This document shows positions 2,393-57,759 of a stretch of DNA of 64,000 nucleotides, piece after piece. The DNA comes from a bacterium BMS3Bbin08. GTDB lineage: Bacteria > Nitrospirota > Thermodesulfovibrionia > UBA6902 > BMS3Bbin08. The notes beneath the pieces are model-generated. The model ran no database searches. It was not told the DNA's origin and worked only from the letters and a program-made list of their open reading frames with translations. The translations under genes were made by a program, and so were the position numbers. The stretch lies in contig BDTR01000025.1 in the NCBI GenBank assembly GCA_002897775.1, forward strand, positions 454-64,453, written 5' to 3'. Positions within the stretch are counted from its first letter, which is position 1; each line of letters opens with the position of its first letter.

Positions 2393-2420
2393 TTGTTAAA
2401 TGTTAATTGATAATTTTTAT
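2393..2420. repeat. 7-nt periodic tandem array (TTGTTAA ATGTTAA TTGATAA TTTTTAT)
   Basis: Read directly. Four head-to-tail units start 12 nt upstream of the malQ ATG (2380). Confidence 0.6.
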
Positions 2421-2461
2421 TTACGTCCTTGATTCCTCTATTCCCTCTGCGAATAGCAGGA

Positions 2462-4879
2462 CTAAATCTTTACGTTCATGCATTCACCCAGCCTGGGTAT
2501 AATTTCCGTCCCTTTTTCAGCTTCCCTGTCTCCCTTTGCCGCCCTGGTTTTCATCGTCCTGAAAAGATCTCTTCCGACCGAGAAGAAAACGTTCTGGGCT
2601 TTCCAGATATCAGGATACAGGGAAAGAGGTTTTAATGTGTCCATCACCCTGCAGATCGTTTCAAAAGGCTGTAAGTCCACTGCATTCTCATTAAGACCTT
2701 CCATAATGGAGTTGATCCATTTACCCACGACAAATTCAACCGTTGTTGTATCGACCCTGACAGACCACCTTTCCGCCTCATCTATCAGCTTAATCAGTCT
2801 TTCAAGGTCCGTACCATTCTCAAAGACTCTTTTCAGGTCAGTATTAAGCACATATTCAACTGCCGAGGCGAAAGGCCTTGGAAGCCTCAGCCCCAGGCTG
2901 TGAAAGTAATTCATTATAGTGTAGTTGTTCTCATATGTCTGGCGGTAAGAGGTTTCAATGTCCTCATAGGTCAACTGGAGTATCTGATTCAGGATCTTTA
3001 TCTGCTCGTCCTTGAACAAATGCCACAGGGAATATATATTACCGTCAAAGTGCTTGTCCATCAGCCTTATTACTTCCGGGATATCGCCTTTTTCAAATGC
3101 CTCCTTTACCTCGCTCTCCATGATCGAAAAATCCCCGTCAGTTGTAAATTCCCTGACCCCGGCATTTATATTGTGGTCGCCAAGATGCAGTACCGCGAAC
3201 ATGATGGTCTTTTTATCCCATGTTATGTCCGAGGCAATATCTGATTTGCCTGTAGCAAGTTTCAGTTTCCCGGCCTCTATTTTATTGTAAACCCTGCTCT
3301 TTTCAGTGTAGCAGCATATTTTTATGTCTTCAGCGTACTCTTCAAAGATCGAGGATATGCAGTAATGGGCTCCTACCCTGATAAGGCCACCTGCCCGTTT
3401 TACAAACATCTCATAGGGGATCGCCGCGTTCTCAAAAATATTACTGGGTGCTTTCTGAAGGTATTGCAGATATTCTGACTCAAGAGACAGCCCCGTCAGC
3501 TCTTCCGCATATTGAATTGCCTTTGACGCATACCTCATCACCTGAACCGCCTCAGTACCTGATACTTCATCAAAGAACCAGCCGCAGCTCGTATACATCA
3601 GCATGGCGTTTCTCTGCATTTCAAGAAGCCTCAGGACCCTTACCTTTTCCTCTTGTGAGAGGGCCTTGTCAGAGCGTCTTTTAAAAAAGGTCTGCACATT
3701 ATTACGCGACCTGTCCAGTACAACTCCGATATAATCATTTCTTAATTCCCATGGGTCATTAAAATGTTTCAAGACCCTGTCATCCTCAAATATATGGATA
3801 AGCTGATTCCTCAACCAGTCCATGGCGTTCCTCAGCGGTCCTCTCCATGCCTGGTTCCAGCCCTGATGCATACCGGTGTTACACCCGCAGTTATCCCTCC
3901 ACCTTTCAACACCGTGTACACAACTCCACGACGAATTCTCAAAAATCTCAACTATGTGGTCCGGGGGGTGCTTTTCAAGATACTCGCCGTAATTCGTTAT
4001 TTTTGCCAGGTTGTTCGATTCTATGTGATGCAGGCAATACGACAATGCCATATCGCCGAACCTGTGATGGTGGCCAAAGGTCTCTCCATCAGTCGCGATA
4101 TTAACGATCTGGGGCCAGTCCCTGTGTTCATTAAACGCGGAAATTAATTTATTGGCAAAGGCCTCTCCACTTTTCAGTAATTCACTGAACGCGATCGCCT
4201 GCGATACAGGGCCGTCATAGAAAAAAAAGCTTATTGTCCTTCCTGACGGAAGGGAACACTGATAAGCCATTGTCGGATCTACTTTCTCTCCGCTGACGTC
4301 CCGCCAGTTCCCTTCTTCTTCTATCCTGCATATTCTTTTTGCCTGCCTGGGCGAAAGAACGGTAAACTTGATCCCATGGTCCACAAGTGTCTCAAGGGTC
4401 TCTATGTCGACAGCGGTTTCCGGAAGCCACATTCCCTCAGGCAATCTGTTGAACCTCTTTTCAAAGTCCTTTATCCCCCATATTGTCTGTGTGTACTTGT
4501 CCCTTTTATTAGCCAGGGGCATTATCATATGGTTATACGCCTGTGCCATTGCGGACCCATGGCCTGAGAATCTCTTCATGCTTAGTCTGTCCGCTTCAAG
4601 AATCGCCTCGTAGATGTCGGGTTTGTGTCTATCAAGCCATGATAAAAGGGTAGGACCGAAATCAAAACTTATCTTCGAATAGATATTTGTTATATCAACG
4701 ATTCTTCCTTCTTTGTTAAGGATGCGGGAAGCCGCGTTCGGGGCGTAACACTCTGCGGTTATTTTTTCATTCCAGTCATGATAGGGATATGCCTCTTCCT
4801 GAAGTTCGATCTCTTCAAGCCAGGGGTTTTCCCTTGGCGGCTGATAAAAATGTCCATGAACGCAAATATATCTATCCAT
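2462..4879 (-). CDS. glycoside hydrolase family 57 protein (alpha-amylase/branching-enzyme-like) with long C-terminal extension
   Basis: 805 aa. N-terminus YICVHGHFYQPPRENPW is the GH57 signature start. Sits between malQ and glgB. Confidence 0.85.
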   Translation of the reverse strand: MDRYICVHGHFYQPPRENPWLEEIELQEEAYPYHDWNEKITAECYAPNAASRILNKEGRIVDITNIYSKISFDFGPTLLSWLDRHKPDIYEAILEADRLSMKRFSGHGSAMAQAYNHMIMPLANKRDKYTQTIWGIKDFEKRFNRLPEGMWLPETAVDIETLETLVDHGIKFTVLSPRQAKRICRIEEEGNWRDVSGEKVDPTMAYQCSLPSGRTISFFFYDGPVSQAIAFSELLKSGEAFANKLISAFNEHRDWPQIVNIATDGETFGHHHRFGDMALSYCLHHIESNNLAKITNYGEYLEKHPPDHIVEIFENSSWSCVHGVERWRDNCGCNTGMHQGWNQAWRGPLRNAMDWLRNQLIHIFEDDRVLKHFNDPWELRNDYIGVVLDRSRNNVQTFFKRRSDKALSQEEKVRVLRLLEMQRNAMLMYTSCGWFFDEVSGTEAVQVMRYASKAIQYAEELTGLSLESEYLQYLQKAPSNIFENAAIPYEMFVKRAGGLIRVGAHYCISSIFEEYAEDIKICCYTEKSRVYNKIEAGKLKLATGKSDIASDITWDKKTIMFAVLHLGDHNINAGVREFTTDGDFSIMESEVKEAFEKGDIPEVIRLMDKHFDGNIYSLWHLFKDEQIKILNQILQLTYEDIETSYRQTYENNYTIMNYFHSLGLRLPRPFASAVEYVLNTDLKRVFENGTDLERLIKLIDEAERWSVRVDTTTVEFVVGKWINSIMEGLNENAVDLQPFETICRVMDTLKPLSLYPDIWKAQNVFFSVGRDLFRTMKTRAAKGDREAEKGTEIIPRLGECMNVKI

Positions 4880-4997
4880 AGTTTTGCAAATATTCGTTTA
4901 ACCCGTTAATTGCAGCATAAAACTGTTATGGTTATCTTGATCCACAAGAATTTAAATCCGGGACCGAACTTCGGACCAACTAAACATACGCGATGCT

Positions 4998-6923
4998 TCA
5001 GCTTTTAAAAAACAAAACGCTTAACGGGGGCAAAGTCAGAGATATTGAGTGGTCCCTTCCCTGCACAGGCATCGCGACCGCTTCAGCGCCTCCGGAATTC
5101 CCGAGGTTGCTTCCTCCATAAGCCTCCGCGTCACTGTTCAGGAGTTCTTTCCAGAAACCCGCATGAGGCACCCCTACCATGTAGCCGTGTCTCGGGACAG
5201 GAGTCAGATTGCATACAACCAGAATTGTTTCTCCGGAGTGCTTACTCTTTCTGATAAAACTTATGATACTTTGCTCCCAGTCATGAGAATCGATCCACTC
5301 AAAACCATCCGCCGAGAAATCCAGTTCATGCAGGGCCGGCTCTGTCCTGTAAAGATAATTCAGGTCTTTCAGCCATTTTCGCAGTCCGATGTGTATCGGA
5401 TACTGGAGACCGTGCCATTCCAGGCTTTCATCATGGTTCCACTCCTTCCACTGGCCAAACTCCCCTCCCATAAAAAGCAGTTTTTTGCCGGGATGACCGT
5501 ACATACATCCAAACAGCGCTCTGAGGTTCGCGTACCTTTGCCATTCGTCTCCGGGCATTTTTCCAACAAGCGACCCTTTCCCATGTACAACCTCGTCATG
5601 GGAAAGTGGAAGGAGAAAGTTTTCCGTGAACGCGTACCATATACTGAATGTAAGCTGGTTGTGGTGGTATTTCCGATGGACCGGGTCCTCCGAGAAGTAT
5701 TTCAGTGTATCGTGCATCCATCCCATGTTCCACTTCATGCCGAAACCCAGGCCTCCGACATGGACGGGCCTTGAAACCATAGGCCACGTAGTGGATTCTT
5801 CAGCAATGGTCTGAACATCAGGATACGCGCTGTAAACAGCTTCGTTCAGTTTCTTTAGCAAAGAAATAGCATCCAGGTCCTCGTTCCCGCCGTATATATT
5901 TGGTATCCATTCCCCTTCTTTCCTGGCATAGTCAAGATACAGCATTGATGCCACGGCATCCACCCTGATGCCGTCGATATGGTATTTATCCAGCCAGTAA
6001 AGGGCATTGCTTATAAGAAAATTTCTGACCTCGTTCCTGCTGTAGTTAAAAATATAACTGCTCCATTCAGGATGAAAACCCTTTTTCGGGTCAGCGTGCT
6101 CGTAAAGATAAGAACCGTCAAAAAAGGAAAGGCCGTGTTGGTCAGACGGAAAATGCGACGGCACCCAGTCAAGTATCACGCCTATTCCGTTTTTGTGAAG
6201 ATGGTCAATAAGATACATAAAATCCTGGGGTGTGCCGTACCTGCTGGACGGCGCGAAATACCCTGTGATCTGGTATCCCCATGAGCCATAGAACGGGTGC
6301 TCCATAACAGGCAGCAGTTCAACATGCGTAAAGCCCATATCCTTTACATAATCCGCGAGATGATGAGCCATTTCCCTGTAGTTAAGGCGCCTGTCCCCTT
6401 CTTCAGGGACCCGTCTCCATGAGCCGAGATGAACCTCGTATATTGAATACGGGGCATCTAGTGAATTAACTTTATACCTGTTCGCCATCCATTCATCGTC
6501 CTGCCACTGATAACCGAGTTCCCACACCACGGAAGCTGTTTTTGGAGACTGCTCCCAGTAATAAGCGAACGGGTCTCCCTTGTCAACCCTGTAGCTGTTA
6601 TATCTGGAGACTATGTGATACTTGTAAATATCCCCTTTTTGAATTCCCGGGATAAAGCCTTCCCATATGCCGGAGCCGTCCCACCTGACACTAAGGGGAT
6701 GTGATCCGCGGTTCCAGCCGTTAAAATCCCCGATCAAAAAAACCTTTTCCGCGTTCGGCGCCCACAAGGCAAAATAGGTCCCTTTTACGCCTCCGACCGT
6801 CATCAGGTGAGAGCCAAGTTTATTGTATAGCCTGAAATGGCTCCCTTCCCTGAAAAGGTAGATGTCGTGCTCAGTAAAAAGACTTGCACTTTGTCCTGTC
6901 ATAACTGCCTTGTCTTCTATCAT
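4998..6923 (-). CDS. glgB: 1,4-alpha-glucan branching enzyme (GH13)
   Basis: 641 aa. Motifs [37 protein letters not shown] and overall GlgB architecture. Confidence 0.95.
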
Positions 6924-14113: not shown

Positions 14114-14148
14114 AAATTGTTGATTGCAAATTGCAAATTTTAAAATTT
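14114..14148. repeat. 7-nt periodic tandem array (AAATTGT TGATTGC AAATTGC AAATTTT AAAATTT)
   Basis: Read directly. Starts 4 nt after the stop at 14110. Confidence 0.55.
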
Positions 14149-14247
14149 AGCTTCAAAACTACAAACAAAAAATCAGGATGATCTCAGAGTACATCTAATT
14201 TAAGCAAGCGCGGAAGTTGCTTTCAGACTAATCAAGGACAAACTGAA

Positions 14248-15354
14248 TTGATCGAAGTAGTTCCTGTTACCGACAAAAGAACCTTCAATGAATTCCTGCA
14301 GTTACCTTTCAAATTGTATTCTAAGGACTCTCTGTGGGTGCCGCCTCTTCTTAAGGATATAAAAGATCAGTTCGCCCCTGAAAACCCATTTTTCAAACAC
14401 GCGCAAATAGCGTCATTCATCGCAAAGTCCGGCGGAAAAACAGTCGGCAGAATAACGGCCATACATAATGAGGCTCACATCGATTTCTCGCGCGAAAAAG
14501 CCGGTTTTTTCGGTTTTTTTGATTGTGTAGATGAAATATCCGCGGCATTGCCGCTTATTGAAAAGGCAAGGCAGTGGCTTAAACAAAAGGGCATGGTCGT
14601 GCTTAGGGGGCCTATGAATTTCTCTTCAAATGAAGAGTGGGGTTCTCTCATAGAAGGTTTTGACGAATCTCCCATGATCATGATGCCGTATAATTTCCCA
14701 TACTATAAGGACTTATTCGAAAACTGCGGACTCACCAAGGCAAAGGACCTGTTTGCCTACATAATAGATATCCCTGACAAACTCCCTGAAAAAACCTACA
14801 GGGTCGCTTCCATCGCTGAAAAGCACGGGGTAAAAGTAAGGCCTTTGAACATCAAGGCGTTTGATGAAGAGATGGCGACATTTAAAAGCATTTATAATTC
14901 CGCGTGGGGGAAAAACTGGGGTTTTATCCCCATGACTGACGAAGAGATCGATCATATGGCTGAGAAACTGAAACCGATAATAATACCTGATCTCACGCTG
15001 ATAGCTGAATGCGACGGAGAGGCGGCCGGCTTTATGATGCTCCTGCCTGACTTTAACTTCGCCCTTAAGAAGCTAAACGGACGATTGTTCCCGTTCGGCA
15101 TATTCAAAGCGCTATGGTATTCCAGACGAATAAAGGACCTTCGCATTCTGCTGCTCGGGGTAAAGGAAAAATACAGAAGACGCGGGGTTGATGCTTTTAT
15201 GTTCATAGAAGGCCTGAAAACCATCAAAAAACTCGGATACAAAAGAGCCGAATTTTCCTGGATCCTGGAAGACAACTATCCTGTCCAGAAAATAATCGGG
15301 ATGGCAGGCGGAAGACTGTATAAAAAATACAGAATATATGAGATTGAAATTTGA
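14248..15354 (+). CDS. GNAT-like acyltransferase-fold protein (candidate bacterial ceramide synthase-type N-acyltransferase)
   Basis: 368 aa. I recognise the roughly 370-aa family usually annotated as GNAT N-acetyltransferase (GFFGFFD, LGVKEKYRRRGVD). TTG start taken from the ORF track. The functional assignment is inference from context. Confidence 0.55.
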   Translation: MIEVVPVTDKRTFNEFLQLPFKLYSKDSLWVPPLLKDIKDQFAPENPFFKHAQIASFIAKSGGKTVGRITAIHNEAHIDFSREKAGFFGFFDCVDEISAALPLIEKARQWLKQKGMVVLRGPMNFSSNEEWGSLIEGFDESPMIMMPYNFPYYKDLFENCGLTKAKDLFAYIIDIPDKLPEKTYRVASIAEKHGVKVRPLNIKAFDEEMATFKSIYNSAWGKNWGFIPMTDEEIDHMAEKLKPIIIPDLTLIAECDGEAAGFMMLLPDFNFALKKLNGRLFPFGIFKALWYSRRIKDLRILLLGVKEKYRRRGVDAFMFIEGLKTIKKLGYKRAEFSWILEDNYPVQKIIGMAGGRLYKKYRIYEIEI

Positions 15355-15431: not shown

Positions 15432-15466
15432 CTCGCTACTCGCTACTTGCTACTCGCTACTTGCAT
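15432..15466. repeat. 7-nt tandem array (CTCGCTA CTCGCTA CTTGCTA CTCGCTA CTTGCAT)
   Basis: Read directly. Ends 10 nt before the ATG at 15477. Confidence 0.75.
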
Positions 15467-15476: not shown

Positions 15477-16748
15477 ATGCCTAGAATAATTGCCGACCTC
15501 CACGTGCATTCAGGTTACAGCAGGGCAACGAGTAAGGATATGAACGTTGCGGTTATGGCCAGATGGGCAAAGAAAAAAGGCATAGATCTTCTGGGGACAG
15601 GGGACTTCACCCACCCTCTTCATCTCGCGGACCTGAAATCATCGCTTAAACCCGCTGGAAACGGCCTCTACACGACCCCTTCCGAACCATCGGTCTTCTT
15701 TATGCTTACGGCTGAAGTAAGCAGTATCTACTCGTATAAAGGCAGGGTCAGGAGAATTCATAATATAATAATGGCGCCGGGCATAGATGTCGCGGAAAAG
15801 ATCAACCGCGCATTGCAGAAACGCGGCGTCAATTTATCCTCGGACGGAAGGCCTATCATGGGAATACCGGCAAAAGACCTGCTGAAAATGGTGCTGGATA
15901 TATCCGGGGACTGTCTTTTTGTGCCTGCCCACGCGTGGACCCCCTGGTTCTCGATCTTTGGAAGCAAATCCGGATTTAACTCGATAGAAGAATGTTTCGA
16001 GGAGTATTCAAAACATATATATGCCATTGAGACAGGCCTTTCTTCAGACCCTGAGATGAACTGGAGACTCCCGGCCCTCGATAATATCACTTTACTGTCC
16101 AACTCAGACGCCCACTCGCCCGGCAAACTGGGAAGGGAAGCAAATGTGTTTGATTGCGGGATGGATTATTATGAGATCATGGATACGATCAGGAAAAAAG
16201 ATAAAAAACGGTTTTTATATACTGTGGAATTTTTCCCTGAAGAGGGCAAATACCATTATGACGGCCACAGGCTCTGCGACGTGCTCTTTTCCCCTTCGCA
16301 GACAAAGGAACACGCGTGCATCTGTCCGGTCTGCAAAAAACCTCTCACCGTAGGGGTTATGAACCGGGTTGATGAGCTCGCCGACAGACCTGTCGGATTT
16401 GTTCCTGAGAACGCGGTCCCCTCCAGGCACCTGGCGCCTTTAATTGAAATTATTGCCGGGACATTAAACGCGGGGGTCAACACTGTAAAGGTCAAAAGAG
16501 AATACGAAAGGATGATCTCGGCCAATACGGAGTTTGATATCCTTCTGGATATCAGTGACGCCGGACTATACGAGCTTGCCTCTGAAAATATCGCGGACGG
16601 CATTTTAAAGATGCGAAAGGGCGAAATAGATATTATCCCGGGCTATGACGGAGTGTTCGGCAGGATCTCAATACTCTCCGGGAAACCCGCGGCAGGCGAC
16701 AGAGAAAAAACAACGGCTGCCGGTCAAAAACAGGGCAGCCTGTTTTAA
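15477..16748 (+). CDS. endonuclease Q-like PHP-domain protein (TIGR00375 family)
   Basis: IADLHVHSGYSRATS, PAHAWTPWFS, LSNSDAHSP.KLGREANVF, GKYHYDGHR, the Cys knuckle CPVCKKPLTVGVMNRV, and IIPGYDGVFG. These match my recollection of Pyrococcus EndoQ. The start is moved to the ATG at 15477 because 15447-15476 is the heptamer array. Confidence 0.75.
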   Translation: MPRIIADLHVHSGYSRATSKDMNVAVMARWAKKKGIDLLGTGDFTHPLHLADLKSSLKPAGNGLYTTPSEPSVFFMLTAEVSSIYSYKGRVRRIHNIIMAPGIDVAEKINRALQKRGVNLSSDGRPIMGIPAKDLLKMVLDISGDCLFVPAHAWTPWFSIFGSKSGFNSIEECFEEYSKHIYAIETGLSSDPEMNWRLPALDNITLLSNSDAHSPGKLGREANVFDCGMDYYEIMDTIRKKDKKRFLYTVEFFPEEGKYHYDGHRLCDVLFSPSQTKEHACICPVCKKPLTVGVMNRVDELADRPVGFVPENAVPSRHLAPLIEIIAGTLNAGVNTVKVKREYERMISANTEFDILLDISDAGLYELASENIADGILKMRKGEIDIIPGYDGVFGRISILSGKPAAGDREKTTAAGQKQGSLF

Positions 16749-35111: not shown

Positions 35112-35617
35112 TACCTGTACCTCCTGACCTCAAAACGAAAAAGCTCTATATCGTCCATTGAAAATATTCCCGCCTTGTATGCTGTTATGTTAAGCTGTTC
35201 CTCGACAGTATTGACCCCCTCCAGGTCGGGGAGCAGGAGCCCGCGGTTGTTCCCTTTTTTAACTATAACACCGTAACGTTTAGGGTCAAGCTCATCCCGG
35301 CTTTCAACTTTTTCCGGAGGCGAAAGCACATCAACAGAATACTCAAGCTCACTCAGCTCCGAAGGAGAGACAGGAGGGAACCTGGGGTCCTGGACAGCGG
35401 CGCTCACAGCGTTCTGTATTATCTCGCCGGCCACATTTTCAGTAGTAGGGGAATAAGTCCCTATACATCCCCTGAGCTCGCCTTTCTTCTTAATGGATAC
35501 AAAAACACCGGCTTTGTCTTTCATCTCCGGGGTCAGCTCTTCAGGCAGGGGGGTAGTTTCCCCGTCCCGTATATAACGCTCGACCGTTTCTTTTGCAAGC
35601 TTTACGACAGGATGCAT
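35111..35617 (-). CDS. AMMECR1-domain protein
   Basis: 168 aa. [18 protein letters not shown] and DPRFPPV motifs. Confidence 0.85.
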
Positions 35618-35620: not shown

Positions 35621-35649
35621 AAATAAGTTAAAAGTTAAAAGTCAAAATT
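35621..35649. repeat. 7-nt periodic array (AAATAAGT TAAAAGT TAAAAGT CAAAATT)
   Basis: Read directly. Starts 3 nt upstream of the AMMECR1 ATG. A second T-tract array with 7-nt phasing lies at 35722-35760. Confidence 0.5.
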
Positions 35650-35760
35650 TTCGAAAAAAATCCATTAAATTAAAACAAACAAAAAATTTTGAACGAATCC
35701 AGGCAGAGAACCGCCTCAACCTTAATTTTACATTTTAATATTTTATTTTTGATCTTTATT

Positions 35761-39458: not shown

Positions 39459-40717
39459 ACCCTCCTCCTTTTTCTTTTGGATAAAGGCGGCAGGAGAATA
39501 TCCATGATGTCATCTATGGTCACCATGCCAAGAAGAACTCCGTCATCGTCTATCACGGGTATGGCAAGAAGATTATATTTGGATATAATTTCAGCAACGT
39601 CATACTGGTCTGTATCCGGGGTCACAGTCTTGAGCTTTGTCTCCATTATTTCGGATAGCGGTTCATCCGGTGCTGAAAGCAGCACGTCCTTGAGGGAAGT
39701 TACGCCCAGGAGCTTCTCATCCTCATCAACGATGTATATATAATAAACGGTTTCCACATTGTGGGCATCTATTTTGAATTTCTCAATAGCGTCTATTGCC
39801 TTCAGGTCCGGATCATACGCGATAAATTCATTTGTCATAAGGCCGCCCGCGGTATCTTCCTCATGGCTCAGCAGTTCCTGGATGTCCTGGGCCTCTCCCT
39901 TTTCTATGGACTCAAGCAGTTCCTGGGCTTTTTCCGACGGAAGCTCTCCAAGCAGGTCAGCTGCCTCATCAGGCGGCATACGTTCTACAATGTCCGACGC
40001 AAAGTCCTTATCAAGGCTTTGTATGATCCCCTTTTGCGCGTCAGGTTCCAGTTCATGGATCGCTTCCGCGGCAACGTTGGGATCAAGGCCTTCGAATAAG
40101 GCCATCCTCTCTTCATGGGACACCTTGCTTATGATGTCCGCTATGTCAGCCGGATGAAGGGCGGAAACCATTTGACGCGGAACGGTCAGGGATATTGTCG
40201 TCAGCTTCGGCTCCAGCGGCTGAATATAGTTCCACGGGATCAGGTTATGGGAAAGGGTCTTTCCAAAGAGCCGGTAGAGTTTCTCACCTTTTCGTTCTAT
40301 TCCAAAGCGCCTCAGTATGCCCCGCATACCCACATCAACAGCACCCAGGCACGCGCTGCCGTTCATACCCTCCAGCCTTATATCATTGACCCTTACTACT
40401 TTGGCCCCGTTAGCGTCTACGATCTGTTTGTCAAAAATATCCCTTACAATAAGCAGGTCATCTTCGGAAAACTCATAGGGTTTGATCTTTAAAGCGTACA
40501 CTCTCGAGGATATGATACGTTTATTGAAAATGCCTATAACGTCCCAGCCCAGGCGGTAATGCGTGTTTTTTTTCTCCAGTATAAGCGCGGATACCCGGGG
40601 CAGAGCGTCCCCTCTGACAACAACAAAATCCCTTACCCTCCCAAGTTCCTCCCCTTTGGGATCAAGTGCGGGTTTTTTGAGAAGTTCGCTTACAAAAAGT
40701 TCACCGAAAAGAGGCAT
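39455..40717 (-). CDS. soluble PRC-barrel + MgtE N-domain + CBS-pair protein (MgtE cytoplasmic sensor module without a membrane pore)
   Basis: 420 aa. LHPADIADII..., RMPPDEAADLLGELP, HEEDTAGGLMTNEF and two CBS repeats. It ends at ...ILLPPLSKRKRRRV with no TM domain. The stop overlaps the NRAMP ATG (ATGA). Confidence 0.8.
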   Translation of the reverse strand: MPLFGELFVSELLKKPALDPKGEELGRVRDFVVVRGDALPRVSALILEKKNTHYRLGWDVIGIFNKRIISSRVYALKIKPYEFSEDDLLIVRDIFDKQIVDANGAKVVRVNDIRLEGMNGSACLGAVDVGMRGILRRFGIERKGEKLYRLFGKTLSHNLIPWNYIQPLEPKLTTISLTVPRQMVSALHPADIADIISKVSHEERMALFEGLDPNVAAEAIHELEPDAQKGIIQSLDKDFASDIVERMPPDEAADLLGELPSEKAQELLESIEKGEAQDIQELLSHEEDTAGGLMTNEFIAYDPDLKAIDAIEKFKIDAHNVETVYYIYIVDEDEKLLGVTSLKDVLLSAPDEPLSEIMETKLKTVTPDTDQYDVAEIISKYNLLAIPVIDDDGVLLGMVTIDDIMDILLPPLSKRKRRRV

Positions 40718-40733: not shown

Positions 40734-40768
40734 CGTTATTCGTTATTGGTTATCAGTTATTAGTTGAA
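40734..40768. repeat. 7-nt tandem array (CGTTATT CGTTATT GGTTATC AGTTATT AGTTGAA)
   Basis: Read directly. Starts 16 nt upstream of the ATG at 40717. Confidence 0.75.
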
Positions 40769-40912
40769 TGAAAGTATACCTAAGGAAAGCGGCTTTCAGC
40801 AACCTCAAAGTTGAGAAAACCATTTTAGATTTGTGGTCACCCTTCAGGCAAGCACAATGCATGGATTTGTTTACTATTGTATTCGCTCGCATCCACTCGC
40901 TTTACATTTTTT

Positions 40913-40947
40913 CTCTCTACCCGTTGCTCGCTACCCGCTGCTTTCTG
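40913..40947. repeat. CTCGCTA-family heptamer array, left copy (CTCTCTA CCCGTTG CTCGCTA CCCGCTG CTTTCTG)
   Basis: Near-perfect inverted copy of 41533-41567. Overlaps the stop codon of the Gx-transporter gene. Confidence 0.7.
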
Positions 40948-41521
40948 AGGAAAGAATTCCTCTGCTGTCTTTCCGGTCAGCAGGTCCCTGCACCTTCTTT
41001 ATTATCAGGCTTGTAACTATCCCGTTAAAGGCCCCGGTCAACGCGCCAAAAAGGATAATCACCGGGCTTATCAATACTATCGCTTCAAACCTTCTGACAA
41101 AGAACAGATATGCCAGTAAAAGCTGGACAATGTTGTGGGTAAGAGCGCCCATGATGCTGATGCCTATGGGGCTGAAAAGTCGTTTACATAGGACTTTTGT
41201 GTACCACATAACCAGCGTACTTGAGACCCCGGCGCCGAGACTCAGAGCGAAAGCAGGGCCGAGAAATGTTCCTGCAAAAAGACTCCCGACAAAAACCCTT
41301 ACCAGCATAACTGTCACACCTGCCTTTAAACCATAAAGCAGAAGAGTGGTGAGCGTTATAATGCTGCTGAAGCCGAACCTGAGCCACGGAATGGGCCTGG
41401 GTATCAGCGTCTCGATGCTGTACAGACCTACCGCATAAGCGGCCAGAAGCGCTATATGAAATATCTCTGCTTTTTTTTCTCCGTTGATATCGGGAAACGC
41501 GTTATTGGCTGAACCGTTCAT
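40931..41521 (-). CDS. Gx-transporter family membrane protein (heptaprenyl-diphosphate-synthase-component-I-like, PF07456-type)
   Basis: About 196 aa from the ATG at 41521 (MNGSANNAF...), with 5-6 TM segments. The family impression is supported by the usual ApbE / NusG-II / Gx gene order. The ORF-track start at 41596 runs through the repeat array and is rejected. Confidence 0.65.
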   Translation of the reverse strand: MNGSANNAFPDINGEKKAEIFHIALLAAYAVGLYSIETLIPRPIPWLRFGFSSIITLTTLLLYGLKAGVTVMLVRVFVGSLFAGTFLGPAFALSLGAGVSSTLVMWYTKVLCKRLFSPIGISIMGALTHNIVQLLLAYLFFVRRFEAIVLISPVIILFGALTGAFNGIVTSLIIKKVQGPADRKDSRGILSSESSG

Positions 41522-41532: not shown

Positions 41533-41567
41533 GAAAGTAGCGGGTAGCGAGCAACGAGTAGAGAGAA
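41533..41567. repeat. CTCGCTA-family heptamer array, right inverted copy
   Basis: The reverse complement reads TTCTCTC TACTCGT TGCTCGC TACCCGC TACTTTC. Starts 11 nt upstream of the ATG at 41521. Confidence 0.7.
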
Positions 41568-41600
41568 CAATACATGGATCTAAATTCCACAATCAAAAAT

Positions 41601-41635
41601 CTTGCTACTCTCTACTTTCTACTTGCTACTTTATT
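41601..41635. repeat. 7-nt tandem array (CTTGCTA CTCTCTA CTTTCTA CTTGCTA CTTTATT)
   Basis: Read directly. Its orientation is opposite to the array 34 nt to its left, so the two could form an imperfect long hairpin. Confidence 0.7.
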
Positions 41636-41814
41636 AAAAAACGCTTGTTTAAAGTTGTCGATACTGGTGTCGGACTTGAAGCCCGGTGAAGATACTCGAC
41701 CAGGCCTGACCAGCTTTCTGCATCGATCTACGAGTTTTCATACCAGCTTCCACATCCATAACCGTGCTTCAAAAAACAGGTCACCCGTCACGTGTTACCT
41801 GTCACTGTTGTTAT

Positions 41815-42231
41815 TTATTTCGTGACCGCGTCGAAATCGCCGGCATGGGAATGCTGTTTATCGCCGCCCACAGACACCACCACCCTGTTCGGAAGGCACA
41901 CTATCGCTCCCCTGTCCACCCAGCCCTGGCGAACACACAGCTTTTGAGGGCATGGCGCGTCTTTCATACGGACCTTACCGTCCTTTATTTCTATTATATT
42001 ATCGCCAAGAGGGCCTTTAACACTGACAACGCGGTCTTCATCAAGGTAAAGCTTATAAACTGTTGTGTCATCAACACTGATATTAACAAGATTACCCGCG
42101 GGCAGCAGGTCATCCATAAAGGAAAACCCTGCTATAGCCAGGGCCACCAGCAGAAAAAAGAGAAGCTTGTCCATAAAGGTCGCCATACTTAAGACGCCGC
42201 CAGTTCTCAGGTCTTTAATCAGCCTCTTCAA
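41815..42231 (-). CDS. NusG domain II-containing (DUF1312-like) membrane-anchored protein
   Basis: 138 aa. One TM segment then GDNIIEIKDGKVRMKDAPCPQKLCVRQGW, which is typical of this family. The true start may be one of the internal Met codons (42186 or 42174). Confidence 0.7.
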   Translation of the reverse strand: MKRLIKDLRTGGVLSMATFMDKLLFFLLVALAIAGFSFMDDLLPAGNLVNISVDDTTVYKLYLDEDRVVSVKGPLGDNIIEIKDGKVRMKDAPCPQKLCVRQGWVDRGAIVCLPNRVVVSVGGDKQHSHAGDFDAVTK

Positions 42232-43228: not shown

Positions 43229-43240
43229 AAACAACAAAAG

Positions 43241-43275
43241 GATGAGGGATGAGGGATGAGGGATGAAGGATGAAT
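43241..43275. repeat. 7-nt tandem array (GATGAGG x3, GATGAAG, GATGAAT)
   Basis: Read directly. Starts 12 nt upstream of the apbE ATG. Confidence 0.85.
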
Positions 43276-43307
43276 TGTTTTTTTGTCTTCCGGACTCCGG
43301 GTTCTGT

Positions 43308-43342
43308 CCATCGTCCATCATCCATCGTCTATCGTCCCTCCG
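43308..43342. repeat. 7-nt tandem array (CCATCGT CCATCAT CCATCGT CTATCGT CCCTCCG), flanked by GGGTTCT repeats
   Basis: Read directly. CCGGGTTCTG occurs at 43297 and 43340, and GGGTTCTGGGTTCT at 43371-43384. Confidence 0.8.
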
Positions 43343-43434
43343 GGTTCTGTTGCCTGTTACATAATTCGTGGGTTCTGGGTTCTGCCTGCCCAGTGGCGAA
43401 GTTGCTCGGGGGGGGCTGAGTTCCAACATGTTTC

Positions 43435-50957: not shown

Positions 50958-50985
50958 CAATTGTCGATCGTCAATTGTCAATTGT
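50958..50985. repeat. 7-nt tandem array (CAATTGT CGATCGT CAATTGT CAATTGT)
   Basis: Read directly. It fills most of the 51-nt spacer between the cysE-cysS stop and the dCMP deaminase start. Confidence 0.75.
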
Positions 50986-50997: not shown

Positions 50998-53178
50998 TCA
51001 CCCGGCCTTTATTTTCCAGTCGGTTCTGTCCTTTTTATCTTCAAGTATGATCCCTTTTCCCTCAAGCTCTTTCCTTATACTGTCCGAGAGGTCCCAGTCT
51101 TTTTTCTGCCTTGCCTCCTGTCTGGCAGATATCTTATCAAGGATATCATCTCCTGACAGGCCGATCTTTTTTACATCCATTAATGACCGGTACCATTCTT
51201 CCGGTGTTCTCTGGAATATATTCAGCACTGCGCCGATCCCGGAAAGGACCTCTTTTGTCCTTAGGACAAGCTCCCTGGCCTTTTGCCCTGAAGGCTTCCC
51301 GTCAAGGAACCTGTTCACCTCCCTGACAAGCTCAAATATATGTCCAAGCGCAAGCGCGGAGTTGAAGTCATCATCCATGGCAGATTCGAATTTGCCCCTG
51401 GCAGAGGACAACAGCTTTTCAAACTCATCATCAACCCCGTTAGAGGCTTTCTTCTCAACAGGGAGTTCCTCAGATGATTTGTCAGCGGTTCCTCCTGTCT
51501 CTATAAAATCATTGATCCTCATTACAGTCGAATAGTACCTGTCAACAGAAACCTCTACATCGTTTAGCTGGGCGTCTGAAAAATCTATGGGACTCCTGTA
51601 ATGGGTTGATAGCAGGAAGTAACGCACCACTTCCGGATCATATTTCCCCAGGATCTCTTCGACCGTAAAAAAGTTGCCAAGAGATTTGGACATCTTCTCT
51701 TTGTCGACCGTTATAAACCCGTTATGCAGCCAGTACTTTACAAAAGGCTTGCCTGTAACGGCCTCGCTCTGGGCTATCTCGTTCTCATGGTGCGGGAAGA
51801 TAAGGTCAGCTCCTCCGCCGTGTATATCAAAGCTTTCGCCAAGATACTTCATCGACATGGCGCTGCATTCTATGTGCCATCCCGGCCGTCCGGGTCCCCA
51901 CGGGCTCTCCCATGAAGGCTCGCCCTCTTTAGAGGATTTCCAGAGGGCAAAGTCAAGCGGGCTCTTCTTCCTCTCATCCACATCGACCCTTGCTCCGGCC
52001 ATCATCTCATCCGGATTCCGGCCTGAAAGCTTTCCGTATCCCGGAAATTTACTGACCTCGAAATAGACGTCTCCGTCAACACTATAGGCGACCCCGGTAT
52101 CAACAAGCCTTTTTATCAGGTCCACCATCTCCTTTATGTGCCCGGTCGCCCTTGGCTCAATATCTGCCCTGCTGACGCCAAGCATGTCCATATCCCTGTA
52201 GTATTTCTCTGTATATTTCCCGGCTATCTCGTCTGTCGATACATTTTCCTGAGCCGCCTTTGCGATTATCTTGTCGTCAACATCAGTAATGTTCCTTATG
52301 TGTTCTACCTTGTACCCCTTAAATCTCAGATACCTTTTTATAACGTCAAAGACTACCGCGCTTCTTGCATGTCCAAGGTGGCTGATATCATAAGCGGTAA
52401 TGCCGCATACATACATGCTGACCTTACCTGGAGTGATGGGGAGAAATTCTTCTTTCTTCCTGGTCAGCGTGTTATAAACCCTCATCCCTGCCTGTCCGGA
52501 AGGCAGGTTTCCGTCTTTTTTACTTTGTTTTTCCATTGCATCAATCCTCTTTGCCAGTTCATCGACCCTTGACTCCATCTCTTCAATCTTCTCTGACACC
52601 GGGTCAGGGAAATGGTCCATAACCTCGACCAGCCCCTCTTCTGTGGTCATCCTGATGATCTTTTTCCTGGTGATCCTGCCCGGTACACCGACCACAGTCG
52701 CGTTGTCAGGTATGGATTTAAGTATGACCGAATTCGCGCCTATCTTCACATTATTTCCGACAGTTATCGGACCCAGTATCTTTGTTCCTGTTCCTACGAC
52801 AACATTGCTGCCCAGGGTCGGGTGTCTCTTGCCTTTTTCCGTGCCGGTACCCCCAAGCGTAACACCCTGATACAGCGTAACATTCTCTCCTATTTCAGAT
52901 GTCTCGCCGACAACAACACCCATGCCGTGGTCAATGAAAAAACCGCCTTTGATCTGCGCGCCGGGGTGTATTTCTATTCCGGTTAGGAACCGCCCCACGT
53001 GGGACAGGAACCTTGGCATCACAGGGACACGGATCTTCCACAAAAAATGGTTTATTCTGTGCAGAAAGATCGCGTGAAAACCCGGATAAGCAAGCACGAC
53101 CTCGATCCCGTTCTTTGCGGCCGGGTCCATCTCAAAAACTGCTTTGTAATCATGCCTTACGTCCTTCCAAAAACCCAT
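50998..53178 (-). CDS. cysE-cysS: fusion protein: serine O-acetyltransferase (N-terminal) + cysteinyl-tRNA synthetase (C-terminal)
   Basis: A single 726-aa ORF. Residues 1-170 form the CysE hexapeptide-repeat region ([31 protein letters not shown]...). A ~60-aa coiled-coil-like linker follows. From Met232 (nt 52485) there is a complete CysS ([29 protein letters not shown]). No stop codon separates the two parts. Confidence 0.85.
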   Translation of the reverse strand: [726 protein letters not shown]

Positions 53179-53185
53179 AGCAGGT

Positions 53186-53191
53186 ATTATA
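53186..53191 (-). promoter_or_regulatory. TATAAT box 7 nt upstream of the cysE-cysS ATG (possible leaderless start)
   Basis: The minus strand reads ttgTATAATacctgctATG. No SD is visible and no good -35 was found. Confidence 0.25.
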
Positions 53192-53203
53192 CAATAAAAA
53201 TAT

Positions 53204-53259
53204 GAGAAGTTAGGAAGTTAAGAAGATAGGAAGCTGAGAAGTTGGGAAGTTAAGAGGTC
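53204..53259. repeat. 8-nt tandem array, 7 units (GAGAAGTT AGGAAGTT AAGAAGAT AGGAAGCT GAGAAGTT GGGAAGTT AAGAGGTC)
   Basis: Read directly, between the yajQ stop and the cysE-cysS start. Confidence 0.85.
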
Positions 53260-53991: not shown

Positions 53992-54339
53992 ATGGGAAAA
54001 AATATCAATTTATCGACAAGGATCCTGATCCATAGCTCTGTAGGGTGCCTTGCCGGTCTCGTGTTCCTGCATCCGGTGTCCATGTTTATCTTTAATATTT
54101 ATGGACACAATACCATGGAGCACTTTTTTGACCCGGGCCACCTGCTGATGGCAGTATACTTTTCATTACTGGGAGGCGCCATAGGTTTTTTTAACGGGCT
54201 ATATATCCACAAAAAAACCTTACTTTACAAGGAGATAGAGATCCTCTCCATTACCGATGAATTGACCTCCCTGTATAACCGCCGTTTTTTTACGAGTCAG
54301 CTCGGCAAGGAGATGGAAAGAGAGATGAGCACCGCCTGA
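53992..54339 (+). pseudogene. N-terminal fragment of a membrane GGDEF protein
   Basis: 115 aa. Two TM segments, then ITDELTSLYNRRFFTSQLGKEMERE (the first helix of a GGDEF domain), then the ORF terminates. Confidence 0.55.
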
Positions 54340-54665
54340 CCGTCAGGCCCGGTAATGATGAGCCGGCCCCGAAGCCACGCCACCATGCCATCATGTATCT
54401 GGTACTGAACCCTTCTGAAAAAATTCCTTATTTCCTTCACCGAATCCCTTATGCCGAGTTCTATTACACCGTGGATCACTATGACGTTATACAGGTTAAT
54501 CCAGAAGGCAATCTGCTCCTGCCTGCTCTTCTGGAAGTTCAGGGCCATTTTTTTCAGGGTGTAGCTCATTTCCAGATACTGCCCGTATGCCTCTGATCTC
54601 CGCATCCGTTCGTAGGCAACCCGGCCCTTCGCAGTATCAAAAAACGCGCCCCTTAGAACATTCAT
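54340..54665 (-). pseudogene. DUF547-like fragment
   Basis: Contains QIAFWINLYNVIVIHGVIE, typical of DUF547, but similarity is lost after ~95 aa. The ORF tail runs antisense into the GGDEF fragment. The boundary at 54340 is approximate. Confidence 0.45.
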
Positions 54666-54710
54666 TGAGTCTTTGAGATTAACAGCTATCTCTTTTGGCG
54701 GAATGTCATA

Positions 54711-56118: not shown

Positions 56119-56130
56119 CTTTTAAAAAAC

Positions 56131-56151
56131 CGTTATTAGTTGTTCGTTATC
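56131..56151. repeat. 7-nt tandem array (CGTTATT AGTTGTT CGTTATC)
   Basis: Same unit family and gene-relative orientation as 40734-40768. Starts 12 nt upstream of the GH15 ATG. Confidence 0.55.
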
Positions 56152-56176
56152 TGACGCGCGATACAGAATTCGCTAA

Positions 56177-56214
56177 AATGGAACCCCACTGGCAAGCCCG
56201 CCTACCCGCAGGCC
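56177..56214. repeat. REP-like element copy (aatggaaccccactggcaagcccgcctacccgcaggc)
   Basis: Aligns with 37975-38012 (atatggaactttacgggcaggcccgcctaccggcaggc). Supplies the last codons and the stop of the 56202-57650 gene. Confidence 0.65.
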
Positions 56215-57650
56215 CTTCCTTTAAGATGGAAGAAAAACTTAAGGGCTTTTTTTACTTTATCCGAGAAGATCTTTCCTGAAAAGAAATTCCCCACAACTCT
56301 CTTGTTGATCTCTGCAAGGGTCGGATAAGAATGAACGGCGGCGGCCAGCTTTGAAAGCTTGACCCCTCCGTTCATCACAGCGACCCACTCGCCAAGCAGT
56401 TCTCCGGCATGCGGCCCCAGGATCTGTATGCCTATTGGTTTATCTTTTTTATCCAGGAGCATTTTCACCTTACCGACCTCCTCACCCTCCGCAAGGCTCC
56501 TGTCATTGGCCCTGAATTGCTCTGTCCAGACCGAGTACTGAATCCCGGCGGCCCCGGCGCTTTTTTCGTTCATCCCTATGCTCGCGAGTTCCGGGTCTGT
56601 ATACGTGCACCAGGGAAGATAAGTGTAGTCTGTTTTTCGGGGCAAATGAAGGATAGCGTTGCTGAGCACGATTCCTCCCTCATAACCGGCAGCATGAGTA
56701 AACTGATACGCTCCGGTGACATCGCCCGCGGCATAGATATGCTTGTGGTCTGTCCTGAGCCTGCTGTCCAGCTTAAGGCCCTTCTTATCAAAGTCCATTG
56801 AGATCCCGTCAAGCCCAAGTCCCTGGAGGTTCGCCTGTCTTCCCAGGGCTATAAGGATCTTCTCAGCCTTAAGGCTTATGGTCCTGCCTTCTTTGTTCCT
56901 GATAACGATCTCCTTTTCACTGCCCAGGTCTTTTGCGCCAAGTATTGAGGAGTTCAGGTGAAATTCCACTCCCTCGGAGATCATGACATTCATAAGCTGG
57001 TCAGCCATGTCCTTATCCTCTTTACTTAATATCTGGCCGCTTCTCTGAACCACAATGACCTTTGTGCCAAGTCGGCTGAACGACTGGGCCATCTCAATTG
57101 CTATAGGGCCCGCGCCTATAGCGATCATGCTCTTTGGAAGACTGTCAAGGGAGAATATCTCTTTATTAGTGATAAACGGGGTGTCATTGATACCCTCTAT
57201 CGGCGGGACAGACGGAGAAGAACCTGTTGCAATGACCCAGTTCTTCGCCGAATATGTCTTGCCGTTAAGGCGTACAGAATATTCGTCCGCGAAAACAGCA
57301 TCCCCGAACTCGACCTTTACCCCAAGTTTACAGAACCTCTCTTCAGAATCATGCTTCTGTATCGTTCTTATCACCGATTGTATCCTCTTTGCCACTTCTT
57401 TATAATCAACCGGTTTAAGATCGGTTTTGGGAAGGCCGTACCTTTCGGCATTTTTCATTAAATGGTAGACATAAGCGGTTCTTATGAGCGTCTTGCTGGG
57501 AACACAACCGTAATGCAGACAGTCCCCTCCAAGCTCTTTTTCTTTTTCGATCAGGAGTGTTCGGGCCCCGAACTGGCTCGCTCCGGCAGCGATCGTGAGT
57601 CCGGCTGAACCTCCGCCTAAAATGCCTATGTCATAATCATGATCCGGCAT
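56202..57650 (-). CDS. class I pyridine nucleotide-disulfide oxidoreductase (dihydrolipoyl dehydrogenase / mercuric reductase-like)
   Basis: 482 aa. GGGSAG FAD motif, redox disulfide GGDCLHYGCVPSK, C-terminal dimerisation domain. Confidence 0.85.
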   Translation of the reverse strand: MPDHDYDIGILGGGSAGLTIAAGASQFGARTLLIEKEKELGGDCLHYGCVPSKTLIRTAYVYHLMKNAERYGLPKTDLKPVDYKEVAKRIQSVIRTIQKHDSEERFCKLGVKVEFGDAVFADEYSVRLNGKTYSAKNWVIATGSSPSVPPIEGINDTPFITNKEIFSLDSLPKSMIAIGAGPIAIEMAQSFSRLGTKVIVVQRSGQILSKEDKDMADQLMNVMISEGVEFHLNSSILGAKDLGSEKEIVIRNKEGRTISLKAEKILIALGRQANLQGLGLDGISMDFDKKGLKLDSRLRTDHKHIYAAGDVTGAYQFTHAAGYEGGIVLSNAILHLPRKTDYTYLPWCTYTDPELASIGMNEKSAGAAGIQYSVWTEQFRANDRSLAEGEEVGKVKMLLDKKDKPIGIQILGPHAGELLGEWVAVMNGGVKLSKLAAAVHSYPTLAEINKRVVGNFFSGKIFSDKVKKALKFFFHLKGRACG

Positions 57651-57663
57651 AACAGCTTCCGTT

Positions 57664-57759
57664 TAAGTTATTTAGTCATTTAGTTATTGAGTCATTCCGC
57701 TTTGCTATTATTGAGTCCTCTTATTAATGACATAATGACTTATTAACTCAATGACTAAT
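57664..57759. repeat. two opposed 8-nt periodic arrays (TTAGTCAT-type on the left, TGACTTAT-type on the right)
   Basis: Left array: TAAGTTAT TTAGTCAT TTAGTTAT TGAGTCAT. Right array: TGACATAA TGACTTAT TAACTCAA TGACTAAT. The region fills the spacer between the TVP38 stop and the oxidoreductase start. Confidence 0.65.

Follow-up and report, generated by a model that had tools for sequence, protein, structure and literature searches.

Tandem heptanucleotide and octanucleotide arrays in a Thermodesulfovibrionia genome: a known kind of repeat in a new lineage, associated with the 5' side of genes

We analyzed a 64-kb stretch of DNA (hereafter, the window; positions 454 to 64,453 of contig BDTR01000025.1) from the bacterium BMS3Bbin08, a member of the Thermodesulfovibrionia (phylum Nitrospirota), in which short tandem arrays of degenerate 7-nt and, less often, 8-nt units adjoin many genes. 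The population of the window is represented by assembly GCA_002897755.1 (contig BDTC01000039.1), and the analysis of this genome covered these 64 kb. The closest relatives of the window proteins are found in Thermodesulfovibrionia/Nitrospirota metagenome-assembled genomes (MAGs; 64-83% identity), and the gene order uvrA-like, apbE, Gx, mgtE, Nramp, IF-2B-like, polyprenyl synthase and AMMECR1 is conserved. The features of the window, with related loci denoted L001 and so on, are as follows.

2393..2420 (-), malQ array: single, about 4 units, sense AATTATCAATTAACATTTAACA, identical in 9 assemblies; in the spacer between the GH57 gene and malQ, 41 nt past the upstream stop and 12 nt before the malQ ATG at 2380, with the Shine-Dalgarno (SD) motif GAGGTG between array and start.
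14114..14148 (+): single array of the AAATTGC type, identical in 8 assemblies; lies 3 nt past the aminotransferase stop (14110) and 99 nt short of a TTG at 14248, the one stop-proximal exception in the window; its unit recurs in the relative L001 at 6631.
15432..15466 (+), endoQ array: single, CTCGCTA x5, identical in 8 assemblies; 10 nt before the endoQ-like ATG at 15477, with AGGGGA in between.
35621..35649 (-), AMMECR1 array: single, sense TTTTGAC/TTTTAAC; 111 nt past the upstream stop and 3 nt before the AMMECR1 ATG at 35617, without an SD.
40734..40768 (-), mgtE array: single, sense AACTAATAACTGATAACCAATAACGAATAACG, identical in 11 assemblies; holds TAACTGA/TAACTAA/TAACGAA units and lies 16 nt before the mgtE ATG at 40717, with no SD.
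40773..40802 (-): promoter-like element TTGCTG-18 nt-TATACT upstream of mgtE, kept in at least 9 related species.
40908..40945 (+): degenerate CTCGCTA-type array overlapping the Gx stop codon (40931-40933).
41533..41570 (-): CTCGCTA-type array (sense), 11 nt before the Gx ATG at 41521.
41601..41635 (-): purine-rich 5' hairpin arm, sense TAGCAAG type, located between the NusG_II-domain gene and Gx.
43241..43275 (-): sense CCTCATC x5, inside the apbE open reading frame (ORF).
43308..43342 (-): sense GACGATG type, inside the apbE ORF, encoding a charged n-region stretch (RRDDRRWMMDDG).
43369..43384 (-): short CAGAACC x2.3 array inside the 5' coding extension of apbE.
50958..50985 (-), dCMP deaminase array: single, sense ACAATTG/ACGATCG with palindromic cores; takes up most of the 51-nt spacer between cysS and the dCMP deaminase gene, 12 nt from the upstream stop and 11 nt from TTG 50946, and is followed by the SD GGAGG.
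53204..53259 (-), cysE-cysS array: period 8, sense CTTAACTT type, about 6-7 units; 25 nt before ATG 53178.
56131..56151 (-), GH15 array: sense GATAACG AACAACT AATAACG, then a T-run; 12 nt before the ATG (56118) of the GH15 N-terminal gene, without an SD.
57664..57759 (-), oxidoreductase pair: inverted period-8 arrays (5' arm 57725-57759; 3' arm 57664-57696, sense AATGACTC/AATAACTA) occupying the VTT-to-oxidoreductase spacer and ending 13 nt before ATG 57650; hairpin z=-3.5.

The arrays are real and non-random. A self-match period scan found 10 period-7 arrays in the window and 0 arrays with periods of 4-6 or 10-11; across 30 block-wise dinucleotide shuffles of the same DNA, period-7 arrays averaged 0.5 per shuffle and never exceeded 2. 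Tandem Repeats Finder (TRF) reported period-7 arrays at 2392, 14123, 15432, 35625, 40735, 41601, 43240, 43306 and 50958, and period-8 (or 16) arrays at 53205 and 57666. From TRF and the period scan together, the period-7 arrays are bounded at 2392-2419, 14123-14149, 15432-15464, 35625-35647, 40734-40765, 41601-41632, 43240-43274, 43306-43337 and 50958-50985, and the period-8 arrays at 53205-53255 and 57663-57696/57725-57756. The main period-7 arrays have 4.0-4.9 copies with 76-96% matches in TRF, and lower copy numbers (2.3-3.3) were obtained at 14123, 35625 and 43369. Thus, the initial annotation of the window was right that tandem arrays exist here, although three of those that it listed are weaker: 40913-40947 scores as period 14 only, 41533-41567 is its reverse complement (38 nt, 92%), and 56131-56151 consists of three degenerate units recognised by eye. 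Searches of the window gave no Rfam match at gathering thresholds and no tRNA or tmRNA genes, and scans for consensus promoters and terminators around the arrays performed no better than on shuffles, leaving the arrays unmarked.

Between 5 and 11 other assemblies, obtained from several sequencing runs, match the window at 99.9% identity, and these near-identical assemblies differ by just ~1 single-nucleotide polymorphism (SNP) per kb. All array spacers are base-identical across 5-11 independent assemblies, whereas 47 other sites vary, and a comparison of 15 arrays among these assemblies, which are consensus sequences rather than reads, revealed no difference in copy number. Because they are base-identical in independent assemblies, the arrays are neither assembly artefacts, the concern raised when they were first noticed, nor visibly hypervariable. 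Only two indel polymorphisms were seen among the independent assemblies, at 35690 and 54210; the former lies in a homopolymer of the polyprenyl-synthase-to-AMMECR1 spacer, and the heptamer array 41 nt away is invariant. The proposal that the arrays serve as slippage-tunable spacers was not upheld, as copy number does not vary while the homopolymer at 35690 segregates.

The arrays are a property of the lineage. In 30 Nitrospirota loci (406 kb), the density per 100 kb is 16.8 for period-7 and 4.4 for period-8 arrays, compared with 1.5 and 1.8, respectively, in 37 loci of other phyla fetched with the same query; periods 5, 6 and 9-11 are not elevated in the Nitrospirota loci. Copy number peaks at 3-5 (median 4.4) and exceeds 6 in 2 of 78 arrays. 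Density is uneven by lineage: of three relatives with about 82% identity, L079 and L081 are nearly devoid of arrays, as are high-GC relatives, and L080 has two AATTATC-type arrays, one of them adjoining a stop codon. A protein search for strains of intermediate divergence gave nothing between 100% and 83% identity, so that only near-identical assemblies and distant species can be compared. At orthologous sites, the spacers of many species are minimal (9-35 nt, SD only), and those of others hold arrays of 60-180 nt with unrelated units. Comparison of orthologous spacers, a check put forward with the initial annotation, thus shows that related species gain and lose arrays and that the units involved are unrelated.

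We compiled a 470-kb set of spacers, in which the gene models of the relatives are ORF-based and their start distances approximate. Arrays are present in 49/274 co-directional, 9/54 divergent and 1/61 convergent spacers, that is, in 58/328 spacers that hold a gene start versus 1/61 that do not (Fisher p=3.6e-4); by spacer length, 6.9 arrays would be expected in the convergent class. The association with start-containing spacers is therefore real. In the window, 7/8 single non-coding arrays lie nearer a start than a stop (one-sided p=0.035). In the 470-kb set, arrays are equally close to upstream stops and to starts, contrary to the claim that they are phased to the SD site, and the array runs over a stop codon in nine spacers, the example in the window being 40908-40945 at the Gx stop. 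Start distances in the relatives are biased by the start-calling rule and were for this reason not used as evidence of phasing.

Ten gaps between arrays and start codons had been noted at the outset. Eight are correct for the starts in public gene calls (malQ, 12 nt; endoQ, 10; AMMECR1, 3; mgtE, 16; dCMP deaminase, 11; cysE-cysS, 25; GH15, 12; oxidoreductase, 13), and the 11-nt gap of Gx is correct for ATG 41521, but public Gx calls start at 41575 or 41596 and place the array 41533..41570 inside the gene. The gap of 12 nt given for apbE is wrong, both arrays being inside the ORF. At cysS, a second ATG at 53154, preceded by GGAAGGA, may be the start instead. An extended -10-like sequence, TGTATAAT, lies at 53186-53193 (-) of the window, 7 nt upstream of ATG 53178, which suggests a leaderless cysE-cysS transcript. 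Since this motif stands between the array 53204..53259 and the ATG, the array may belong to the DNA upstream of the promoter and not to the leader.

The apbE gene starts at GTG 43438, not at ATG 43228, and its ORF is open through all its arrays to the lipobox LTAC (Cys codon 43199-43201). GTG 43438 overlaps the uvrA-like stop by 4 nt (GTGA), and an in-frame ATGA/GTGA start overlapping the upstream uvrA-like stop is kept in 17/24 species. This overlap start holds at any insert length, with 18 to 77 residues preceding the lipobox Cys. Because the overlap start is conserved and the ORF stays open through the arrays, the apbE arrays are coding signal-peptide expansions and not spacer DNA. In the window, 43241..43275 encodes part of the stretch just upstream of the signal-peptide hydrophobic core (SSFIPHPSSLI), and in L004, L009 and L015 the hydrophobic core of an ordinary lipoprotein signal peptide is clearly encoded by the pyrimidine-rich apbE array. 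Most species carry arrays in this 5' region, with differing units. Public apbE annotations disagree (337 vs 407 residues), the 407-residue call matching GTG 43438. The array core 43308-43337 is flanked by 13-nt direct repeats, ACAGAACCCGGAG (sense), at 43338-43350 and 43295-43307; together with the nearby CAGAACC heptamer, these repeats suggest arrays nested in arrays or a duplication of ~43 nt.

Frame-preserving arrays are not confined to apbE. In relatives, in-frame heptamer and octamer arrays lie deep inside conserved enzymes, adding 7-32 residues; array-free orthologues align cleanly across the insertion sites. FabF has two loop sites with arrays in L003, L014, L018 and L059, which are absent in L015 and L017, and in MnmA of L004 an (AAACTCG)6 array encodes KNSKLETRNSKLET. 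Further in-frame arrays were found in a CobB-like protein, an aminotransferase, a HemN-like protein and a TolB signal peptide. The array sites within enzymes are the following.

L003 7574-7770: in-frame enzyme array site
L059 8017-8190: in-frame enzyme array site
L014 14455-14479: in-frame enzyme array site
L018 9632-9660: in-frame enzyme array site
L004 3931-3997: in-frame enzyme array site
L007 12998 and 14107: in-frame enzyme array sites
L024 3281 and 3695: in-frame enzyme array sites

Relatives also carry arrays over gene 3' ends. The presence of arrays in enzymes, over stops and in signal peptides means that they are not a structure specific to start codons. Their initial description as 5'-untranslated or intercistronic elements stands for the 5'-side association, the putative mgtE leader and the unpaired single arrays and fails for apbE, the enzymes, gene 3' ends and the hairpins. 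In L006, an identical composite of (AAATTTC)4 followed by (CTGTTCA)5 is present at 3896-3982 (-) and 6398-6479 (+), in each case directly after the ATG of one of two unrelated secreted or membrane proteins, one of them TolB-like, and encodes the n-region and hydrophobic region of both signal peptides. The flanks of the two copies are unrelated and diverge right outside the arrays, and the segment between the two arrays differs.

A distance of 4 nt separates the -10 box of the promoter-like element from the mgtE array downstream of it. As this element is conserved, the mgtE leader would begin with the array; the leader matched no Rfam family (e.g., M-box). Relative to a seed in L001, TTCAACTAACTAAC, the mgtE array is a 16-nt expansion. 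The arrays 40908-40945 and 41533-41570 form a 38-nt CTCGCTA-type inverted repeat, 92% complementary with 587 nt between the arms, that brackets the whole Gx (Hpre_diP_synt_I) coding sequence and could permit long-range RNA pairing or DNA inversion. An ORF at 41764-42192 (+) was considered as a gene and dropped, because public calls place the NusG_II-domain gene at 41815-42231 (-); the Gx spacer is therefore co-directional, not divergent.

Units differ between loci, with recurrent types. In the window, the CTCGCTA type is found at 15432, 40908, 41533 and 41601, and the AATAACN type at 40734, 56131 and 57664. Over all arrays, 24 pairs have identical canonical units, compared with 4.1 +/- 2.0 after shuffling letters within units; in some of them, the two arrays are orthologous or belong to a single hairpin. 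Recurrence at non-orthologous sites includes AAATTTC in L001, L006 (twice) and L024, and AATAACT in the window, L001 and L014. Most of the arrays had been described as G-poor in the gene sense, which is true of the window and, in the 470-kb set, only of the start-proximal arm of pairs (G 14%, C 31%; single arrays, G 18%, C 19%). Single arrays are predicted to be unpaired: their minimum free energy (MFE) ranges from 0 to -3 kcal/mol, and no spacer z-score is below 0. Column-permuted arrays are equally unstructured (p=0.9), giving no sign of selection on unit order for lack of RNA structure; the unpaired state thus follows from composition and tandem arrangement, not from base order.

The data demonstrate the excess in the lineage, the 5'-side bias, the frame-preserving coding arrays, the turnover between species with stability within the population, and the two structure classes. 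We lean towards regarding the arrays as lineage-specific heptanucleotide (less often octanucleotide) repeats that are made by slippage, kept where they are tolerated and filtered near starts. On this view, they belong with the cyanobacterial short tandemly repeated repetitive (STRR) sequences and with the long simple sequence repeats (LSSRs) known from prokaryotes. Slipped-strand duplication of resident seeds would generate the arrays, typically of 3-5 copies, and concerted evolution would keep them, such that the position stays while the unit sequence drifts. Selection would then remove arrays wherever they disrupt function. Arrays are confined to tolerant sequence: spacers between cistrons or close to promoters, coding regions of signal peptides, protein surface loops, the 3' ends of genes and the stems of hairpins.

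Near starts, such a filter would leave forms that are forward-oriented, rich in stops in three frames, free of start codons and non-folding; the start-proximal survivors in this window would be, in addition, G-poor and often built on a TAAC core. Surviving arrays would join the 5' leader, as probably at mgtE, and the ribosome-binding region would stay single-stranded. Single-stranded leaders of this type may be harmless or mildly helpful, and may help in a genome in which about a quarter of the genes have a core SD. Two arrays in inverted orientation would instead produce a hairpin of 20-35 bp. The periodicity would, on this account, be a by-product of the way arrays originate, and nothing would read it. 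In favor of this account are the excess limited to periods 7 and 8, the turnover at orthologous sites, the seed that expanded at mgtE, the arrays tolerated in signal peptides, enzymes and stop codons, the bias toward the 5' side, the forward orientation of TAAC-core arrays (13 cases vs 2), the near-zero folding energy of single arrays, the narrow range of copy number, and the published abundance of heptanucleotide repeats with slippage as their proposed cause.

Several observations weigh against this account. No slippage event was seen, the arrays being invariant in 5-11 assemblies that are ~1 SNP per kb apart. The 24 identical-unit pairs exceed the 4.1 expected, an excess that a purely local random origin does not predict, and L006 carries the same composite array pair at two signal peptides. 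The unstructured state is no greater than in column-permuted arrays and so gives no positive sign of selection on unit order. Finally, the start distances in relatives are approximate, as the gene models are our own ORF-based calls.

An alternative that we regard as doubtful is that single arrays near starts act in cis as a dedicated element for translation, their A/U/C-rich periodic leader being read by a single-strand RNA-binding protein with a footprint of ~7 nt. Ribosomal protein S1 or a cold-shock-domain protein would be candidate readers, recruiting or parking the ribosome at genes that lack an SD, as has been suggested for the TAACTGA repeats of Beggiatoaceae. Orientation favors such an element: TAAC-core arrays point toward the start in 13 cases and away from it in 2 (p=0.007; our own tally, binomial test), and the six in the window (2393, 35621, 40734, 53204, 56131 and 57664) are all directed at the downstream start, 3-25 nt away. 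A strict pattern, (TAAC N3-4)x3, had just 5 hits, insufficient for statistics. TAAC-core units are nearly free of G and place a stop codon in each of the three frames. TAAC-core arrays also precede AMMECR1 in three species, the window being joined by L001 and L059, with none at this site in 10 other species. Furthermore, array length is narrow (26-35 nt), and the gaps are 3-16 nt at malQ, endoQ, AMMECR1, mgtE, dCMP deaminase, GH15 and oxidoreductase. With approximate starts, a core SD motif (GGAG/GAGG/AGGA at -20 to -4) precedes only 2/9 array-preceded genes; however, the frequency is equally low among genes in general (15/55 in the window), and the array genes thus do not stand out in this respect. 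The genome appears to be SD-poor; Cyanobacteria and Bacteroidetes, which also have start-proximal heptamer repeats, are SD-poor too. The bias in position and orientation matches that of the TAACTGA repeats (PMC4679880), and the mgtE array contains a TAACTGA unit itself. Nevertheless, the units vary so widely (CTCGCTA, ACAATTG, CCTCATC, CTTAACTT) that no single sequence-specific reader fits, most orthologues in related species have no array at all, and arrays of the same kind lie in coding regions, at 3' ends and in hairpins.

Adjacent arrays raise the separate, and in our view unlikely, possibility that inverted pairs are RNA structural elements, namely terminators or attenuators, RNase III sites, or mRNA stabilisers similar to repetitive extragenic palindromic (REP) sequences, a reading that partly overlaps the slippage account. 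In 17/28 adjacent pairs the arrays are inverted and fold into inter-arm hairpins (z -2 to -9). Three such pairs lie in the window: 41533/41601, where the spacer folds at -56 kcal/mol (z=-2.8) with 41533..41570 as the 3' arm and 41601-41635 as the 5' arm; 43241/43308, which pairs imperfectly (22 inter-arm pairs, z=-3.1); and 57664/57725. Polarity in the gene sense is consistent, the 5' arm being purine-rich in 22/27 scored arrays and the 3' arm pyrimidine-rich in 19/24, many of these cases being apbE orthologues, in which coding explains it. In relatives, the hairpins of the Gx-to-mgtE spacer are placed past the upstream stop and ahead of the conserved promoter-like element of mgtE. Several non-coding hairpins of relatives are followed by T-tracts and resemble terminators with array-extended stems; T-tracts follow most hairpins outside apbE, as listed below.

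L010 4219-4318: hairpin followed by a T-tract
L010 15474-15578: hairpin followed by a T-tract
L014 10047-10153: hairpin followed by a T-tract
L026 13797-13868: hairpin followed by a T-tract
L059 106-144: hairpin followed by a T-tract

However, arrays are nearly absent from convergent spacers (1/61), where terminators would be expected, and sense-strand hairpins are not more stable than their antisense counterparts (6 vs 10, p=0.3), which gives no sign of selection at the RNA level. The pairs of the window lack a convincing U-tract (57664-57759) or lie in coding sequence (43241-43342, inside the apbE ORF), and hairpins account for the paired subset only.

It seems quite unlikely that the 7-8 nt periodicity is itself functional, reflecting, in Thermodesulfovibrionia as in heterocystous cyanobacteria and Beggiatoaceae, either a dedicated array generator or a protein that binds single-stranded nucleic acid with a 7-nt footprint, is largely indifferent to sequence and coats the arrays. 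If it were, the arrays would amount to a genome-wide layer of control over translation or mRNA fate at gene 5' ends, and the same process would remodel signal peptides and enzyme loops in frame.

Spread of the arrays as small mobile or dispersed elements, resembling miniature inverted-repeat transposable elements (MITEs), REPINs or the Rickettsia palindromic element and moved by a Y1 (RAYT-type) transposase, appears very unlikely. Such spread could account for the recurrence of units across non-orthologous loci and species (24 pairs vs 4.1 expected), the (AAATTTC)n + (CTGTTCA)n composite at two L006 loci, the inverted-arm architecture of ~100 nt in the pairs, the in-frame insertions in FabF and other enzymes of relatives, the 13-nt direct repeats around 43308-43337 and the presence of a Y1_Tnp gene ~1.6 kb past the left end of the window on a longer contig. 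However, beyond small unit families, the arrays of this genome have no conserved sequence or terminal motif and share only their periodicity. The flanks of the two L006 copies diverge at once, with different inter-array segments, the mgtE array resembles a local expansion of a resident seed, and the Y1_Tnp gene belongs to a tRNA-linked island, with no heptamer arrays on either side. That island, at L102 5640-6899 (~1.2-2.4 kb beyond position 1 of the window), contains a tRNA-like gene whose 3' end, AAGTCCTCTCTCGCCCACCA, is repeated twice more downstream, followed by the gene for a 283-residue Y1_Tnp (IS200/RAYT-like) protein, and looks like an element integrated at a tRNA gene.

That the arrays are contingency loci, in which slippage gains and losses of units switch or tune the downstream gene, is hardly credible: tandem units of a length that is not a multiple of 3 do lie between promoter and start or in signal-peptide coding regions, and heptanucleotide repeats in the 5'-untranslated region control hmw expression (PMC12721329), but copy number is constant in 15 arrays across 5-11 assemblies in which the 35690 homopolymer varies, the genes are housekeeping ones (malQ, cysS, mgtE, apbE, dCMP deaminase) rather than surface or restriction-modification genes, the short arrays (3-5 copies) of degenerate units (76-96% matches) imply lower slippage rates, and the frame through coding arrays is kept across species.

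No new mechanism is demonstrated by these data; what they provide is a new lineage for an old class of repeats. Heptanucleotide arrays have been known since 1990 (STRR), and Thermodesulfovibrionia are a fourth, unrelated lineage to carry them, at about one array per 6 kb, with a conserved gene order that permits comparison of orthologous sites. Such comparison constrains any theory, in that position persists while the unit turns over, convergent spacers are avoided, and arrays lie in frame within a signal peptide and essential enzymes. In practice, the arrays mislead gene callers on starts, as at apbE and Gx, and create spurious small ORFs.

STRR heptanucleotide sequences were reportedly described in heterocystous cyanobacteria by Mazel et al. 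in 1990. Like the arrays studied here, they are tandem heptamers with several recurring unit families per genome, mostly non-coding, and they can sit in functional genes; cyanobacterial STRR occur within helix P12 of RNase P RNA. In contrast to STRR, the present host is not cyanobacterial, and STRR arrays can be much longer. We know of no reported association of STRR with the 5' side or start of genes, and in-frame protein-coding inserts are, to our knowledge, not a recognised feature of them. In Neisseria, phase-variable CTCTT repeats are found in the signal-peptide coding regions of opa genes. The arrays share with these and with the Haemophilus influenzae hmw repeats (PMC12721329) a placement between promoter and start or in signal-peptide coding sequence, but those loci are hypervariable and encode surface proteins, whereas here the arrays are invariant across assemblies and precede housekeeping genes.

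The closest likeness in placement is to the repeats described by MacGregor (2015; PMC4679880), although the initial annotation knew of no earlier start-phased arrays. One Beggiatoaceae genome holds 169 sets of TAACTGA repeats in 2-6 copies, mostly forward and a few nt from starts, where a ribosome-binding site is usually missing; they are predicted to lack structure, Cyanobacteria and Bacteroidetes have them as well, and S1, Csp or CsrA-like readers were proposed (PMC4679880). The present arrays are similarly tandem heptamers, mostly intergenic and forward, that end a few nt before starts, are predicted to be unstructured, contain stops in all frames and show no functional theme among the downstream genes. 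However, TAACTGA is here one variant unit within 40734-40768, the other arrays differing: instead of one dominant unit, each locus has its own, with the TAAC core in a subset. The gaps are 3-25 nt, whereas the largest TAACTGA class ends 1 nt upstream of the start (PMC4679880). Inverted pairs, in-frame coding inserts and the phylum, Nitrospirota, further set the present arrays apart.

GGGAATC and GGGGAYT heptamer arrays, including inverted pairs, were described in Xanthomonas and Nostoc by Rehm et al. (2015; PMC4692102). They too are intergenic, with some stem-loop inverted pairs, and occupy the same gene junctions with varying length and sequence; unlike these G-rich, quadruplex-capable repeats of one family, the arrays here have many units, and the start-proximal ones are mostly G-poor. 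As cited in both of these papers (PMC4679880, PMC4692102), Mrazek et al. (2007) found heptanucleotides to be the most abundant class of long simple sequence repeats in many prokaryotes and proposed that they originate by polymerase slippage over a contact length of ~7 nt. Heptanucleotide abundance and sporadic phylogenetic distribution are shared with such LSSRs (units of 5-11 nt), but that survey, as represented there, was statistical and did not involve Thermodesulfovibrionia, start proximity, pair polarity or frame-preserving inserts. A search of the literature on heptamer repeats yielded no relevant report from Nitrospirota, and the arrays thus represent a new lineage for a known kind of repeat. 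What distinguishes them from all of these systems is the number of unit types in one genome and the coding inserts that preserve the reading frame.

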